This document shows, in pieces, positions 2,608 to 39,135 of a stretch of 64,000 bases of DNA. The stretch comes from an uncultured Clostridia bacterium. GTDB lineage: Bacteria > Bacillota > Clostridia > TANB77 > CAG-508. The translations under genes were made by a program, and so were the position numbers. The notes beneath the pieces were generated by a model. It made no database searches. It worked only from the letters and a program-made list of their open reading frames with translations, and had not been told where the DNA came from. Positions within the stretch are counted from its first letter, which is position 1; every line of letters begins with the position of its first letter. The stretch lies in NCBI GenBank assembly GCA_944390285.1, contig CALXPN010000002.1, forward strand, positions 31,762-95,761. Reading direction: 5' to 3'.

Positions 2608-3666
2608 ATGAAAAAAATCGGAATATTATCTATGCAAAGAATAATTAATTTTGGCTCTTTTCTACAAGCCTATGCTCTTTCAGATATTGTTAGATCTTTG
2701 GGAAATGAAGTAGAATTTGTAGATTTTAAAGTAGAACCATGTGCTGTTGAACCAGAAATACCATTATCTGTAGACAGTGTTCCAGAAAGTAGAAAAAAAG
2801 CTGTTAAATATATTCTAAAAGCTCATGAAAACTTTAATAAAAATATATTACCAGATATAAATGTTACTACAAGAAATGAAATTGCAAAAGTTGATACTCT
2901 TTTAATTGGTAGTGATGAAATATTTAATTGTTTACAAAAAAATCCTGTAGTAGGCTATTCTTTAGAAATGTTCGGAAAAAATGCTAATGCAGATAAAATA
3001 ATATCTTATGCTGCTTCTTGTGGAGATACTACTTATGAAAGAATTTGTAAACATAACAAACAAAAAGAAATATCAGAACTACTAAATAAATTTTCAGCTA
3101 TTTCTGTAAGAGATGAAAATTCTAGAGAATTTGTAGAAAAATTGTCTGATATAAAACCTATAAACCATTTAGATCCTGTTCTTATATATGATTTTAAAGA
3201 TGTTGAAATAGATACTGCAAATCTAGAAAATTATATAATCGCTTATGCATACGATTTTAATTTTTCAGAAGAAGAAGCAAATTATATAAAAGAATTTGCA
3301 AAAAAACACAATAAAAAAATACTTTCTTTTAGTATCTGTTATCAAGATTTCGCAGATATTGTTGTAGATATACATCCTTTTGAAATATTTTCATATTTTA
3401 GAAAAGCAGATTTTGTAATAACTAATACTTTCCATGGAACTATTTTTTCCATAAAAACTCATACTCCTTTTGTTTCTTTTACTAGAAATTATAATACTCA
3501 AAAATTAGGAGACCTTATTGAAAGATTAGAATTTCAAGATAGAAGAATTCACTCTTTAAAAGAATTAGAAGACAAATATAACAAACCCATAAATTTTTCT
3601 AAATGTGATGAAAGATTAAAAAATGAAAGAATTAGAAGTATTGAATATTTAAAAGAGAATTTATAA
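2608..3666 (+). CDS. Polysaccharide pyruvyl transferase family protein (CsaB-like)
   Basis: MKKIGILSMQRIINFGSFLQAYAL N-terminus is typical of this family. It is the usual partner gene of FrhB-like proteins in cell-wall polysaccharide loci. RBS AGGAGG. Confidence 0.7.
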   Translation: MKKIGILSMQRIINFGSFLQAYALSDIVRSLGNEVEFVDFKVEPCAVEPEIPLSVDSVPESRKKAVKYILKAHENFNKNILPDINVTTRNEIAKVDTLLIGSDEIFNCLQKNPVVGYSLEMFGKNANADKIISYAASCGDTTYERICKHNKQKEISELLNKFSAISVRDENSREFVEKLSDIKPINHLDPVLIYDFKDVEIDTANLENYIIAYAYDFNFSEEEANYIKEFAKKHNKKILSFSICYQDFADIVVDIHPFEIFSYFRKADFVITNTFHGTIFSIKTHTPFVSFTRNYNTQKLGDLIERLEFQDRRIHSLKELEDKYNKPINFSKCDERLKNERIRSIEYLKENL

Positions 3667-3751
3667 TGTTTTCCAAAATTTTCATTTGTTTTTATATTTT
3701 TAAAATGTTAATATTATTTTAGAGTTATTTTTCTTTCAAAGGAGTCTTTAT

Positions 3752-3991
3752 ATGGAAAACTTTAAAATCACTATAAAAAATAAAAAAACAAAAAAATTAG
3801 TAAATTTAAATTTATTTATCTCTTTTATAATTTGTACATTTGGAATCTTTATGCTTTGGATATATAATACATATTACATATCTATATACCTATTTAAAGC
3901 TAGTATTATTGTTTTTAGAACAGGATTATTTATGGGAACTTTTTCAATTATATTTGGCATATTTTTTGAAAATTATTTAGGTTGTAAATAA
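3752..3991 (+). CDS. Small hydrophobic membrane protein (hypothetical)
   Basis: 79 aa, two predicted TM helices, AAAGGAG RBS; no recognisable family. Confidence 0.3.
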   Translation: MENFKITIKNKKTKKLVNLNLFISFIICTFGIFMLWIYNTYYISIYLFKASIIVFRTGLFMGTFSIIFGIFFENYLGCK

Positions 3992-4008
3992 TTTATTTAC
4001 ATATAAAA

Positions 4009-4041
4009 AATCTCAGAAATTCATTTTCTGAGATTTTTTTA
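4009..4041. terminator. Bidirectional rho-independent terminator between convergent genes
   Basis: 11-bp stem aatctcagaaa / tttctgagatt with a 5-nt loop and a T-run. Confidence 0.6.
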
Positions 4042-4061
4042 TTAATATTATATAATTCTTA

Positions 4062-4604
4062 TTAATAATTTTGAGCATTAATTTCAAAGAATGCTTGTGG
4101 ATGATTACATACTGGGCAAACTCCAGGAGCTTCTTTTCCTACACAAATATGTCCACAGTTTCTACATTTCCAAATTTTGTCTCCATCTTTGCTAAATACT
4201 AAATCACCTTCTACATTTTCTAATAATTTTTTATATCTTGCTTCATGTTCTTTTTCTATTGCTCCAACTGCTTCAAATAAATAAGCAATTTTATCAAATC
4301 CTTCTTCTTTTGCTTCTTTTGCCATTCTATCATACATATCTGTCCATTCAAAGTTTTCTCCTTCTGCTGCTGCTTTTAAGTTTTCAGCTGTTGAAGAAAT
4401 ATCTCCTCCATTTAATAATTTGAACCATAGTTTTGCATGTTCTTTTTCATTTTCTGCTGTTTCTAAGAATATAGCAGCAATTTGCTCATATCCTTCTTTT
4501 TTAGCTTTACTAGCAAAATAAGTATATTTATTTCTAGCTTGAGATTCTCCTGCAAAAGCCTCCATTAAGTTTTTTTCTGTTTTTGTTCCTTTTAATTCTG
4601 GCAT
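4062..4604 (-). CDS. rbr: Rubrerythrin
   Basis: 180 aa; ferritin-like diiron domain ([13 protein letters not shown]...) plus C-terminal rubredoxin-like CRNCGH...CPVCNHP. Confidence 0.85.
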
Positions 4605-20358: not shown

Positions 20359-20473
20359 TTAATTCATCTCCTTTCATAATGCATAATTATATAATGAAAA
20401 TTTAAAAAACACAAGAAAAAAGTGATATACTTGTATAAATATATATCACTTTGTAAATTTTATATAAAACAAT

Positions 20474-20665
20474 AAAATCCATATATATAATAAAAAAATA
20501 AAAATATTTCTAGTCAAGCTAGTTTTCATAAAAATTCTAAGATTAGATTTGTCAGCGCCCTCAGGAACAAGCCTGAGATTCCCTAACAAATCTAACCTAA
20601 GAATTTCTATATTCAAACTACTTTCCATTCCATATTTTTATTTTTTTATTATATATATGGATTTT
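20474..20665. repeat. Hairpin/MITE-like element, copy B (inverted relative to A): perfect 34-bp terminal inverted repeats around the conserved core
   Basis: 20474-20507 (aaaatccatatatataataaaaaaataaaaatat) is the exact reverse complement of 20632-20665. TIR sequence differs from copy A. Core retains the identical 37-nt gtcagcgccctcaggaacaagcctgagattccctaac. The track ORF 20446..20628 lies inside it and is likely spurious. Confidence 0.7.
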
Positions 20666-20678
20666 TATTATACACAAT

Positions 20679-22619: not shown

Positions 22620-24527
22620 TTACTTTAACGGCCTCCGCCACCTCCGGCCTCCACCGCCAAATCCTCCTCCTGTTGAAAATCCTCCACCAGCACCTGTACC
22701 TGATGAATAATTTATACTACTTCCAATAGAAGAATTCATTGTATTTATAAAATTAAAATTACTATTTGAATTAAAAGCTATATACATATATGAATAATTA
22801 TTTCTTAAATATTGTTCATCACCAAGCTCTGGAAATTTTACTTTTAATTGTTCTATAACTTTTTCTGAAATTCCAAATGCTGTTGCAAAAACTAAAAATT
22901 TTTCCCATAATACTAAATCTGGAACTTCTTTATCATCAAGTTTTGAAAAATCTTCCATATATCTTTTTAGAGCACTCCATTTTTCCCTCTGATTTGCACC
23001 TTTTTGTGTTAATCCATTAAATCTTGATATATAGCACATTAATTTTGTAAAAACAGCTATAGATAAAACCAAAAATATAACTGAAATTGCAACTATTGAT
23101 GAAGCAAAAATCATACCAAACGCAATTATTATACAGAACATTAGAATTACACAAGGAACTGTATATTTTGCACTTTTTTTGATTATATTCTCATCATATG
23201 TTTCTTTTTGTGTATTTTCTTTTTTAGCTAGTTTTGAATATTCTTTTACTAATTCTTGTACTTGTTTTGTATGTTTTTTATTATACTTTTCAAAATCTTT
23301 TATTGTAAATATATTATTATTACTTATATTTTTTAAATAATTGTATAAATATTTTTCATCTTCATTTAATTCTTTTCCATTCTTATTTAATTTTATGATA
23401 AAATTTTTCTTAGTATTTTCAATACTTTCTTTTTTATTGTCAGATTGTTTTTCTTCAAAACTTATCCACCCTTTTAAGCACATATTAAGCATTGTAGCTG
23501 AAATTATTTTTCCTATATTATAATCTGTATTATTCAAATAATATAGAAAACTTGCTTCTAATACACTTGCATTTTCATCTGGTAATTCTCTAAAATATTT
23601 TATTTTTTCTTCTGGTAATATTTTAGGATTTTCTTTTGACTCTTTTGAAATAGTAAACCAATATTTGATACATAAAACACTTCCTATAATTCCAACAATC
23701 ACAACAATATTACTAACAAGCTCTTGCATTTTTTCATTTTTTTCTCTTTTTTCATTTGCTTCATTTGCATAATCTGTCTCTTCAGAAATTATTGTATCTA
23801 ATTTATTCTCATCTACTTTTTTTTGTGTATTTATAAACATAGATGTTGGTGTTGCAATTCTAATTTCTAAAAATGTATTTCTTTCTAAATTCTCTACACT
23901 AAAACTAGCTTGATATTGAGTATCTTTGTTTATATTTCCATTAAGTGGTCCATGTGCCCATACTCTAAAATCTTCTTCATCTACAATTCCATATGGTACT
24001 TTTATAATTCCATCTATTTTTTCTATTGGAATATCAAAATCATCTCCTATTAATTTCCAATAAACTTCTGCACAATCATTATATAATGTTACATGATTTG
24101 CAACTGTATAATTTATCTCAAATGTCCTTGTTTCAGTTCCACTAACATCAACTCCCCATGCAATCTCAAAATCATTATCTGGATTTACTAAAGCTTGATA
24201 ATAATTTCTATCTACATGATATGAATACTCTTCTTTTGGTTCATATACAACTTTTTTTCCATCAGTTAATATTTCTGTCACTGTAACATCCTTTATTTCA
24301 TCATAAGAATCATCCATTTTAAAAGTTTTAAATAATGTATTTGTATCTGATATTTCTATATTCCAAGTTTCTTTAATATCCAAATCTCCATTATTTCTAA
24401 CTAATACATCAAAATTTAAATTATTAATCTTCTGCGATTCTGCAAAAGAAGATTTTGGTTTAATAAAAAATATTAAAACTGCCAAAAATATAATAAATAT
24501 TACTTTTAATAAAACATTTTTTTTCAT
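22620..24527 (-). CDS. DUF2207-like membrane protein with C-terminal Gly-rich tail (paralog of 6338..8488)
   Basis: Same architecture as 6338..8488; tail SGTGAGGGFSTGGGFGGGGRRWRR. The ATG at 24527 is preceded by AAGAGG. Confidence 0.55.
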   Translation of the reverse strand: MKKNVLLKVIFIIFLAVLIFFIKPKSSFAESQKINNLNFDVLVRNNGDLDIKETWNIEISDTNTLFKTFKMDDSYDEIKDVTVTEILTDGKKVVYEPKEEYSYHVDRNYYQALVNPDNDFEIAWGVDVSGTETRTFEINYTVANHVTLYNDCAEVYWKLIGDDFDIPIEKIDGIIKVPYGIVDEEDFRVWAHGPLNGNINKDTQYQASFSVENLERNTFLEIRIATPTSMFINTQKKVDENKLDTIISEETDYANEANEKREKNEKMQELVSNIVVIVGIIGSVLCIKYWFTISKESKENPKILPEEKIKYFRELPDENASVLEASFLYYLNNTDYNIGKIISATMLNMCLKGWISFEEKQSDNKKESIENTKKNFIIKLNKNGKELNEDEKYLYNYLKNISNNNIFTIKDFEKYNKKHTKQVQELVKEYSKLAKKENTQKETYDENIIKKSAKYTVPCVILMFCIIIAFGMIFASSIVAISVIFLVLSIAVFTKLMCYISRFNGLTQKGANQREKWSALKRYMEDFSKLDDKEVPDLVLWEKFLVFATAFGISEKVIEQLKVKFPELGDEQYLRNNYSYMYIAFNSNSNFNFINTMNSSIGSSINYSSGTGAGGGFSTGGGFGGGGRRWRRPLK

Positions 24528-30025: not shown

Positions 30026-30033
30026 AAGACCTG

Positions 30034-30134
30034 ATCTATATAATATAAAAATATTGCAAATATCTTAAAGTCAAGCTAGTTTTTACAGAACTACTTTCCA
30101 AACGATATTTGCAATATTTTTATATTATATAGAT
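30034..30134. repeat. Hairpin/MITE-like element, copy C (short): perfect 31-bp terminal inverted repeats around a 39-bp core with the centre deleted
   Basis: 30034-30064 (atctatataatataaaaatattgcaaatatc) is the exact reverse complement of 30104-30134. Core ttaaagtcaagctagtttttacagaactactttccaaac matches both edges of the A/B cores. Confidence 0.6.
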
Positions 30135-30179
30135 TAGGATTAAAAAAGATAGCCATTTATTTAGACTATCTTTTTATTA

Positions 30180-32470: not shown

Positions 32471-32713
32471 ATGAAAAATAATAATAACGATAATAATAAT
32501 AATAATGAAAATGCAATAAAAATAGTAGTTGGCGATGAATCTGTATTAAATATCTCTGAAGTTAATGATTATATGAATGATTTACGTCCAAGAAAAATTG
32601 ATAATACAAATCTTATTATACCTGTACCTAAAAAGAAAATTGAAAAAACTAAAAAAGTTGCTAAAAAGAAGAAAAAAATAAATAAAACTATAAAAAAAGA
32701 AATTGAAAAATAA
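32471..32713 (+). CDS. Hypothetical low-complexity Asn/Lys-rich small protein
   Basis: 80 aa; good RBS (AGGAGGG); no family. Confidence 0.3.
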   Translation: MKNNNNDNNNNNENAIKIVVGDESVLNISEVNDYMNDLRPRKIDNTNLIIPVPKKKIEKTKKVAKKKKKINKTIKKEIEK

Positions 32714-32741
32714 ATTTCAATTTCTTTTTTTATAGTTTTAT

Positions 32742-33608
32742 TTAGTATGAATAAGCTTCATTTAAAATCACTTCATATCTTGCATAGTTTACTAATTCGT
32801 TTTTTTCATCATTCCAAATTCCAGAATCTATAATTCTTTCTTCGTCTCCTGATTTTATATCATATATATATGTTTCTTTAACATCTAAAATATTATCTTG
32901 CAAATCGTAATAAACTATTGAAAATCCAACACAATTTATCTCTTCTGTATAATTGTTTTTTAAAGTTATATTTATTTCACCATTTTTTAATTCATTTGCA
33001 ATTGAGATATAATCATTTAGATAATAATCTTTGTAACTTTCATCATAAAAATCTTCTTTAGTTATAAAAGTCTCATATCTAACTTGATTTTTGGGTAATT
33101 CTTCAAATTTTAAAAATCTTGATGAATTAGCTTTAAAATAATCTATATATTGTTTTTTAATATCTATTATTTTATTTGATTCATCATAATAAACTACATA
33201 AACCAAAATATTTGTTATATCTTCATTATTTTGATTTGTCATATTCAATATTAATTCATTATTTATACTTATTGATTGTTTTACTATTTGTATATTTTGT
33301 TTTTGTGTTTCAAAATTTGATTTTCTTATTTGTTCTTGAACTTCATAATCATAAACATCTTCATTTATATCTCTATAATCTTCATAATATTCATCACTAT
33401 ATTCAGAATCATCCTTATAATTATAATAATATAAAACTATTCCAACTACTACTATTAATATAATGGCTATTATTATATTCTCTTTATTTTTTTTCAATTT
33501 CCCTCTTACTTGTGCTTTTTTGCTATTTTCATCATCATCTAAACCATCTAATTCATCCATAAGTTTTTGATTGTCTAACTCATTTAAATCTTTTTTATCT
33601 TCTTTCAT
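32742..33608 (-). CDS. Hypothetical membrane-anchored protein
   Basis: Likely start MKEDKK at 33608 after AGGGGGA; single TM (IIIAIILIVVVGIVLYYY) then a Tyr/Asp/Glu-rich extracytoplasmic region. Confidence 0.4.
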   Translation of the reverse strand: MKEDKKDLNELDNQKLMDELDGLDDDENSKKAQVRGKLKKNKENIIIAIILIVVVGIVLYYYNYKDDSEYSDEYYEDYRDINEDVYDYEVQEQIRKSNFETQKQNIQIVKQSISINNELILNMTNQNNEDITNILVYVVYYDESNKIIDIKKQYIDYFKANSSRFLKFEELPKNQVRYETFITKEDFYDESYKDYYLNDYISIANELKNGEINITLKNNYTEEINCVGFSIVYYDLQDNILDVKETYIYDIKSGDEERIIDSGIWNDEKNELVNYARYEVILNEAYSY

Positions 33609-36183: not shown

Positions 36184-36260
36184 GGCGATGTAGCTCAGTT
36201 GGCTAGAGCATCCGGTTCATACCCGGCAGGTCGTAGGTTCAAGTCCCACCATCGCTACCA
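36184..36260 (+). tRNA. tRNA-Met (anticodon CAT), elongator-like
   Basis: GGCGATGTAGCTCAGTTGGCTAGAGCATCCGGTTCATACCCGG...CATCGCTACCA; cloverleaf with CAT anticodon loop and encoded CCA; near-identical to the B. subtilis elongator tRNA-Met. Confidence 0.85.
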
Positions 36261-36263
36261 TTA

Positions 36264-36299
36264 ATCAGTCGAAAGACTGATTTTTTTTTATTTTTTTTA
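36264..36299 (+). terminator. Rho-independent terminator after the tRNA
   Basis: Stem atcagtc / gactgat with loop gaaa, followed by a long T-run. Confidence 0.6.
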
Positions 36300-36488
36300 A
36301 ATTTATAAAATTGCTCAAAAAGGTTTATTTATAGCCTTTTTTTATTTTTAACTTTTTTAAAATTCTCTGAACTTTTTACAGCTTTTTTCAATTTACATGC
36401 CCAAGTACAACCCCATTTTTTCAAAAAAATTAATTTGGAGTTTAAAATTACAATCCCAAATTAAATTTGGGGTTGTAAAAATAATAAT

Positions 36489-37052
36489 TTAGATTTCTAA
36501 TTCTTTTTGTTGAATATTTTGTAATAATTTAACACTATCTAGCATATTTTCTTCAAGATAATATTTATTTACTTTTTCTATTTCTTTTTCTTTAAATTTG
36601 TCGAATACTGATGTATATGTATTTAAAGTTACTGATACATCTTTATGTCCCATTAATTTTTGAACAACCACTGGTGCCATACCGCTTTCAATACATCTTG
36701 TTCCGTAAGTATGTCTTAAACTATGTGTTGTAATATCCTCAATTCCAAAGTGTCTTTTTAATAATCTTTTTAGTTCTGTATTTACATTTTCTCTATCTGT
36801 ATATTTTCTACATTCAGGTTTAAATAATAATTTTTCTTCGTTATTTTCTTTTATATATTTTAGTATTTCTAAACCTGATAAGTTTATGTTAATAATTATA
36901 ATATCAATATTTTTATTAATAATACTTTGCATAGCTTCATTTATATTATGTGATATGTTATATATTTTTAAATTACTTATTGAGTTTGAAATTTTGTTAA
37001 TAATTTTAGACATATAATCTAAATTGTTATCAATAATCATTAGATTTTGCAT
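36489..37052 (-). pseudogene. Tyrosine recombinase/phage integrase C-terminal catalytic-domain remnant fused to a receiver-like N-terminal fragment
   Basis: HSLRHTYGTRCIESGMAPVVVQKLMGHKDVSVTLNTYTSV carries the HxxR...Y active-site region of tyrosine recombinases. The N-terminal 80 aa look like a CheY-receiver fragment, and the integrase N-terminal and core-binding domains are missing. Confidence 0.5.
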
Positions 37053-38465: not shown

Positions 38466-38975
38466 CTATCCTCCTTTATAAAAATTCTTTTTGATTTTTT
38501 TTCTTGCTCTATGTAGTCTACTTCTAACATTTATTTCAGAAAGGTTTAATTCTTTAGCTATATCCTTTATAGGTTTATCAAAATAATAGAACATATTTAT
38601 TATTTTAATATCTATTTCTTTTAAACTATTAAATGTTTCTCTTAAATTATCTATATAGAAATTTTTGTCTAAAAAATTTTCTGTATCATAATATCCGATA
38701 CTATTTTCATAATCTGATAAATTATAAGTATAATTTTTTTTTCTAAAACGTTCTCTTACTAAATTCCTTGTAATACCTGAAATATATGAGTCAAATGATA
38801 CGGTTATATTTTTTTGGTTTTTCCATAATATGAAAAAAGTATCTGCTAATATTTCTTCTTTATCTTCAACACTCAAATTATTATTAGACATATTATTGAT
38901 TATTGTTCTAATATATGGTGTATATTCGCTTATTATTTTATCTAAATCTAATTCATTGCTATTTATTGTATTCAT
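38466..38975 (-). CDS. Sigma-70 family RNA polymerase sigma factor (ECF / TcdR-like group)
   Basis: Region 2 (ADTFFILWKN) and region 4 HTH (DIAKELNLSEINVRSRLHRARKKI). Likely start MNTINS at 38975 after AAGGAG; the track start at 39083 is probably too early. Confidence 0.6.
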   Translation of the reverse strand: MNTINSNELDLDKIISEYTPYIRTIINNMSNNNLSVEDKEEILADTFFILWKNQKNITVSFDSYISGITRNLVRERFRKKNYTYNLSDYENSIGYYDTENFLDKNFYIDNLRETFNSLKEIDIKIINMFYYFDKPIKDIAKELNLSEINVRSRLHRARKKIKKNFYKGG

Positions 38976-39135
38976 TAATTGCTCCTTAATAAAATCTCTC
39001 GTATATATAGTGTAATTTTTTTTTAAAAAGTTGCACTTTATTTTTAATTTTTTATTATCAAATTTTTGCAAAAAGTGCAACATTTTTAAAATTTAAGAAA
39101 CTATATATACAAAATCTTAAGAAAGGAGGAATATT

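Follow-up and report, generated by a model that had tools for sequence, protein, structure and literature searches.

A dispersed intergenic hairpin repeat of gut Clostridia and a population allele that has lost its apex

REPINs and the REP-BIME sequences are hairpin repeats that are mobilised by RAYT transposases, keep their pairing by compensatory change, and are presumably recognised in single-stranded form. The ERIC sequences (or IRU) of the Enterobacteriaceae are ~127-bp imperfect palindromes with TA-flanked termini and conserved terminal repeats, and a 1996 study by Sharp and Leach is said to have traced shorter ERIC variants to internal, palindrome-associated deletion. ERIC has been counted among the small repeats, as described together with bcr1, an intergenic repeat of ~155 bp in the Bacillus cereus group whose compensatory changes keep a structure thought to act as RNA (PMC3184786). 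The bcr1 repeats have 5-bp direct-repeat flanks and a two-stem, cruciform-like fold. Invertons are segments of 100–200 bp that lie between inverted repeats and occur in either orientation among close strains; those served by one recombinase have their repeat sequences in common, and their inversion carries a promoter or coding change. Finally, template-switch (quasi-palindrome) mutation, which is a mutational mechanism and not a family of elements, has been credited with the homogenisation of arms, the inversion of spacers, and the extension of stems (PMC8794818, PMC5941160, PMC8604942, PMC13100816).

Here we analyze a family of intergenic hairpin repeats represented by three copies (A, B, and C) in the window, a 64,000-nt stretch of DNA from an uncultured Clostridia bacterium. 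We file the family among the intergenic hairpin repeats but outside any named family, its nearest relatives in kind being ERIC, bcr1, Correia-type MITEs, REPINs, and invertons. Like ERIC, it is intergenic and multi-copy, forms a long imperfect hairpin, and encodes no protein, but the sequences are unrelated, and the family differs from ERIC in its locus-variable perfect outer stems, its core inversions, its strong strand asymmetry, and the lack of a detectable target duplication; the 89 copies examined for direct target-site duplication likewise set it apart from MITEs. It resembles bcr1 in being a Firmicutes intergenic repeat with compensatory base changes, whereas it forms one long hairpin, has no direct repeats, and is framed by perfect inverted repeats that support inversion. 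With REPINs it shares compensatory changes and a presumed recognition as a single-stranded hairpin. However, none of the hallmarks of REP units (20–40 nt in length, a GC-rich composition, a conserved tetranucleotide, and an accompanying RAYT gene) was observed in or near the copies, and conservation falls on an AT-rich interior of 120 nt, with asymmetric loops, rather than on the ends. As in invertons, a segment of 100–200 bp between inverted repeats occurs in both orientations among close strains, but the likeness stops at orientation: the repeats differ by locus around a conserved, almost palindromic interior, and there is no linked recombinase. All three outcomes of template-switch mutation are seen in the family, although that mechanism leaves the conserved core and the dispersal unexplained. 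We found no paper describing these hairpins, and literature searches on TANB77 with inverted repeats, and on invertons with template switching, returned nothing specific; the family is apparently undescribed.

In our best reading, which we consider probable, copy C is a deletion allele of a hairpin repeat of ~191 nt that belongs to a family constrained as a single strand, its arms make up the outer hairpin stem, and template switching or recombination would account for the rearranged alleles. If so, the family adds an uncatalogued, dispersed, structured hairpin to the poorly known, small-genome, low-GC Clostridia of the gut, and provides a natural, population-level record, at one kind of locus, of spacer inversion, arm homogenisation, and apex deletion, processes so far known mostly from reporters or phylogenetic inference.

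Copy C and its alleles

The window is chromosomal, has a G+C content of ~25%, and encodes gatCAB, smc, scpB, and proS; its proteins find their matches in metagenome-assembled genomes (MAGs) of uncultured gut Clostridia. Only six perfect inverted repeats of at least 16 nt occur in the 64 kb, and three of these are copies A, B, and C. Copy A spans 14398–14590 (better-folding or 'strong' strand, +), with arms at 14398–14432 and 14556–14590 around a core at 14433–14555, and copy B spans 20474–20665 (strong strand, −), with arms at 20474–20507 and 20632–20665 around a core at 20508–20631. A covariance model built later recognised these two as the only full copies in the window. The arms of both are flanked by A-runs and T-runs.

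Copy C, which lies between convergent genes, is a hairpin at 30034–30134, and its perfect 31-nt inverted repeats and 39-nt core are present exactly as they had been described. The left repeat, ATCTATATAATATAAAAATATTGCAAATATC (30034–30064), is matched by its exact reverse complement at 30104–30134, and the 39 nt between them, TTAAAGTCAAGCTAGTTTTTACAGAACTACTTTCCAAAC (30065–30103), are what is left of a 121-nt core whose would-be strong strand is the minus strand. The inverted repeat in fact stretches to 35 nt (left arm 30030–30064, right arm 30104–30138) with a single mismatch, the G at 30033. This G is a private SNP of the window strain: the arms are perfect over 35 nt in nine of the 11 other assemblies and in L004, and L155 has another private SNP, also within these terminal 4 nt. 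All three copies contain the edge motifs GTCAAGCTAGTTTT and ACTACTTTCC; the 39 nt of copy C correspond to both edges of the cores of A and B and, relative to A and B, lack 84–85 nt of the centre. A further match to the edge motifs at 23901 lies inside a gene and was set aside as chance. Immediately beyond copy C, and outside the element, is an ordinary bidirectional terminator hairpin at 30142–30175 (AAAAAAGATAG...CTATCTTTTT).

Public assemblies, queried with the HD-GYP gene beside copy C, yielded the same site from 11 further strains, at least 99% identical. Among the 12 assemblies including the window, four carry a full 121-nt core, one carries its exact reverse complement, and seven (the window and six other strains, one of them on a contig with a long-read-style name) carry the 39-nt form. 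The full cores sit between the same arms as copy C. The 39-nt form derives from the full core by one deletion of 82 nt, the junction of which is ambiguous over the tetranucleotide AACT (30089–30092). Copy C is thus a derived allele in the population, with a frame that was inherited and not re-formed. This bears out the proposal that copy C is an internally deleted member, with 82 central nt fewer than the full allele of this site, but it undercuts what the preliminary description built on that proposal, namely that palindrome formation is intrinsic because even a deleted copy keeps its frame: since other strains hold the full 121-nt core in the same arms, the deletion is later than the frame, and copy C is therefore uninformative on how such frames form. 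The short allele is found on both haplotypes of the adjacent terminator (with and without a TA dinucleotide in the 30150–30165 region, L001–L010), a pattern suggesting that the deletion at AACT has happened more than once or that strains have recombined.

Site A is polymorphic in the same manner. Its full 123-nt core is found in one orientation in two assemblies and in the opposite one in four; relative to the window, four full-length and four apex-deleted alleles in other strains are inverted, and L032 has exactly the reverse complement of the window's core. The apex deletion, present in four assemblies, removes 56 nt between AAATT repeats and is independent of the deletion at site C. In one further assembly the site falls in a scaffolding gap. 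Across species, the entire ~250-nt unit is inverted between L069 and L110, with breakpoints in the outermost inverted repeat of 19–20 nt and flanks that match as reverse complements. Inversion of the core or unit was thus seen at three loci, and apex deletion at two. The inversion at site C comes from one low-coverage (4.7x) SPAdes contig and may be an assembly error, because the 35-nt arms are longer than the smaller k-mers of such assemblers. This explanation is less likely for site A, where each orientation is represented by several assemblies and the deleted alleles share one orientation, and it does not apply to L069 and L110. Indeed, the deleted alleles have a single orientation at each site (7/7 at site C and 4/4 at site A), which argues that assembled orientations are not random.

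In relatives with 83–86% identity in the flanking protein, neither arms nor core are found at sites B and C, and the ordinary bidirectional terminator is the only hairpin at site C. This makes the entire 190-nt unit a gain or loss specific to a lineage. The empty site C of one 85%-identity relative (L157, 1543–1589) starts with ATATATAATACAAAAA, 16 nt of which resemble TATATAATATAAAAAT in the left arm of copy C; the likeness may be a coincidence of AT-rich sequence, or it may indicate that the flank contributed part of the arm. At the position of copy B, between a TM2 gene and gatC (window 20359–20678), the related species L158 has an AIM24-family gene (3308–4403).

Distribution, core structure, and arms of the family

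Copies were gathered from a species-representative genome collection with a degenerate pattern for the central motif, and their total is a lower bound. The pattern gave at least 110 matches and the covariance model 111. The matches listed come from ~45 uncultured Clostridia genomes of human, rabbit, sheep, and mouse guts, with up to nine or more copies per genome; eight others, one on a viral contig and seven outside the Clostridia, are chance pattern matches with no support from the model. The view of copy C as one of a multi-copy family is thus borne out by at least 110 copies in ~45 genomes. A scan of the collection with the apical stem of A and B as the query gave no match, owing to the variability of this stem. 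In Rfam 15, the window and 17 loci gave only tRNA and tmRNA at the gathering score, sub-threshold matches being generic miRNA-precursor hairpins.

All copies among the matches listed are intergenic, and they are enriched downstream of genes (20 between convergent, 51 between tandem, and six between divergent genes; chi-square p = 0.0014). Flanking sequences revealed no target duplication in 89 copies, with an identity of 4.87 of 8 positions compared to 4.98 of 8 in an offset control (p = 0.59). Clustering of the 746 neighbouring ORFs, from ~750 kb around the copies, revealed no transposase (Y1 transposases included), no recombinase, and no nuclease, nor does the window hold a cognate transposase-encoding element. 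Most neighbours are housekeeping genes, the commonest single class being prepilin-like proteins. In the rabbit MAG Lapin-022 bin72, copies L043, L076, L092, L103, L127, L132, and L141 are located 60–95 nt upstream of paralogous prepilin-like genes in one orientation, and at least eight copies in that genome lie just upstream of such genes with a fixed orientation; the repeat was either co-duplicated with these genes or has a regulatory association with them. The element also has practical consequences for metagenomics: the repeat breaks assemblies, approximately 20 of the ~110 copies being no more than 300 nt from the end of a contig, and pipelines based on orientation will label it an inverton.

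In the interior of the hairpin, the stems covary very strongly from one subfamily to another. In the model-aligned set, 93.8% of the cells are paired, compared to 72% in shuffles and 38–51% in slid controls; the covariation score is 0.50 versus 0.13 in shuffles, and double changes occur in 22 of the 27 pairs. Two motifs outside the helices are conserved: UAG-G-G-AA-UCUCA / UGAG-G-G-C-G-CUR forms an asymmetric internal loop towards the apex, and G-GA-AAGU / GCUU-GA-C forms a tandem G·A motif at the base. The conservation of the central loop is partly a matter of construction, as the copies were collected with an exact central motif, and matches found by the model alone do vary. Indeed, only the model found a second subfamily, with the related central loop GGAAA..GUUCA / UGAA..AGGGUGCC (L072, 5032–5174; L085, 9–156 and 1744–1891; L134, 2758–2903; L096, 6763–6906). 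Likenesses to K-turns, group II intron domain V, ssoA CS-6, the pC194/phiX nick sites, and dif did not fit across the subfamilies, and an outward promoter composed of TTGAC at the core edge and the AT-rich arm was dismissed by eye, as no consistent −10 hexamer occurs at 17±1 nt.

The two strands are far from equivalent. One folds much better as RNA in 97 of 98 copies (on average −42.8 versus −31.8 kcal/mol), with 310 G·U pairs against 95 on the other strand; tandem G·A pairs are likewise part of this difference. The asymmetry points to selection on a single-stranded form and, together with the covariation of the stems, indicates a core under constraint to fold on one particular strand, as either RNA or ssDNA. 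The persistence of conserved mismatches and wobbles in a core presumably exposed to a homogenising pressure also points to function. A simple role as a 3'-UTR RNA fits poorly, since among 51 cases with co-directional neighbours the better-folding strand is the antisense one in 38 (p = 6e-4); its orientation also flips among strains. Our preferred candidate is an RNA or ssDNA hairpin that is bound by a protein and has no enzyme encoded in cis, and the conserved loops, together with the strand asymmetry, offer a handle for finding a binding partner.

The arms are the outer stem of this hairpin, conserved in length, unconstrained in sequence, and partly locus-specific; the palindromic frame is, as had been proposed, an integral part of the element. 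The total span is constant (median 193 nt), with minor classes near 275, 320, and 450 nt in which the unit is either longer or nested in another repeat. Nested copies (L074, L084, L088, L095, L114, L116, L123, and L133, e.g. in BRZ_GB bin19) lie within a palindromic repeat with GGGGACGTTTC...TTGCACCTTTTTGTGCAA, and have perfect arms of up to 40–56 nt and spans of ~320 nt. Arm sequences differ among A, B, and C and have no consensus between loci. In other genomes, AT-rich inner arms are common to the copies, and the outermost 5–17 nt are locus-specific and often higher in G+C. Even the outer arms are shared by L069 and L139, two copies at different loci in one genome, so arms can travel with the unit. 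L115 and L125 are orthologues from two species with 99% identity across the inner ~170 nt; their outer arms are wholly different and still complementary. Across the family, ~84% of the outer-stem positions form Watson–Crick pairs, which places the three perfect arms of 31–35 nt in the window at the well-kept end of the range. Exact segments of 26–29 nt from the arms of A and C had no match in viral contigs, and a guide-like role of the arms was discarded.

Origin of the frame and of the rearranged alleles

How would such alleles arise? The alleles show recurrent apex deletions between short direct repeats, exact inversions of the core, and arms that pair perfectly while evolving fast. At site C, the ~191-nt unit, composed of 35-nt arms and a 121-nt core, lost its apical 82 nt in one deletion, probably of the slippage type, between AACT tetranucleotides, with the arms already in place. 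Two long inverted repeats ~120 nt apart would be expected to undergo template switching during replication or inverted-repeat recombination, which would homogenise the arms and invert the spacer; with slippage promoted by the hairpin, the same process could also delete the apex. Template switching is read here from its outcomes, and RecA-dependent recombination or an unlinked recombinase would yield the same alleles. Neither the constant total length nor the replacement of the outer arms between L115 and L125 is explained by such a model. A bolder reading would make the family a novel kind of mobile, fixed-length, strand-specific hairpin (RNA or ssDNA) whose conserved asymmetric loops dock a protein encoded by the host or by the element, and whose variable, perfectly paired outer stem and invertibility are part of its working or spread, for example through a hairpin-shaped single-stranded intermediate that regenerates the arms, and not by-products of replication errors. 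We regard this as possible but doubtful.

The preliminary description instead pointed to enzymes, and a reading along these lines would have the frame arise at insertion as an inverted target duplication, with the core edges and the ATC and GAT junctions as the sites of a dedicated nuclease or recombinase. In its favour, the outermost 5–17 nt of the arms are locus-specific in several genomes, the empty sites of related species have neither arm, and that of L157 opens with its 16-nt likeness to an arm of copy C (the left one). Nevertheless, the span is ~190 nt whatever the locus-specific share of the arm, L069 and L139 have outer arms in common although they lie at different loci, and copy C, deleted only after its frame existed, has no bearing on the matter. 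As to the enzyme, the motifs at the core edges are well conserved, but no nuclease or recombinase is encoded near the copies, and the junction residues, whose variability had been named in advance as evidence against their role, do vary: with a slash at the junction, copy B reads ATAT/TTCTAG...CCATTCC/ATAT, the alleles at site A read CATC/GTTTGG or CATC/ACTTGG, and other species differ again. The ATC and GAT junctions are therefore not invariant, which by that criterion refutes the idea built on them, and we consider an insertion-made frame with dedicated sites unlikely.

Two further explanations seem to us more improbable still. The core could be a small mobile element that entered long terminator palindromes already present in the genome, at their apical loop, in the way that IS1397 and ISKpn1 insert into REP palindromes, so that the arms would be host terminators. 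The enrichment of copies 3' of genes and their depletion between divergent genes agree with this, as do the A-runs and T-runs beside the arms of A and B, and a long palindrome without a core does exist in the window at 32679–32744 (perfect over 30 nt, with a 6-nt loop, and overlapping the 3' ends of two convergent genes). This palindrome, however, is without a core in all 10 strains and is imperfect in most strains other than that of the window, where it varies in T-run length and by a G/C SNP, unlike the arms of the element; it was rejected as an empty or fully deleted site and is a polymorphic terminator. Moreover, the empty sites of related species show no such palindrome, an ordinary terminator persists beside the element at site C, and the conservation of inner arms among copies in other genomes implies that they belong to the element, all of which makes an origin in terminators very unlikely. 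A programmed phase-variation switch, in which a site-specific recombinase flips the element as an inverton and thereby controls neighbours such as prepilin-like surface proteins, has in its favour the two orientations at sites A and C and between species, the prevalence of prepilin-like proteins among the neighbours, and the tyrosine-recombinase fragment in the window (36489–37052). The set of at least eight copies upstream of prepilin-like genes in one rabbit-gut genome can be counted on the same side, their orientation being fixed. Yet arms without a consensus between loci leave no common site for a recombinase, none is encoded among the 746 neighbouring ORFs, and the one in the window adjoins a tRNA, like the integrase of an island; flipping a nearly palindromic core alters the sequence only slightly, the genes on either side of copy C are convergent, and housekeeping genes make up most of the neighbours. 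We give a programmed switch correspondingly little credence, and the deletion allele of a single-strand-constrained hairpin remains our preferred reading of copy C.

Other features of the window

The leader of the gene for a 119-aa lipoprotein (14289–14397, minus strand) contains a relatively GC-rich, strain-conserved segment, GGAAATCCAAGTTAGAATCCTCTAGTTTTACCGGGGATCAGTC, which has no match in Rfam and is preceded by a promoter-like TTGATT-N17-TATACT. The gene listed as a 325-aa ORF is in truth one of 313 aa. At 36184–37052, a tRNA gene is followed by the 187-aa C-terminal domain of a tyrosine recombinase, and 3' of this fragment lie ORFs of unknown function, a sigma-70 region-4 protein (38466–39083), and a zeta toxin (47015–48025); the segment from 36184 to ~48025 is probably an island integrated at the tRNA.
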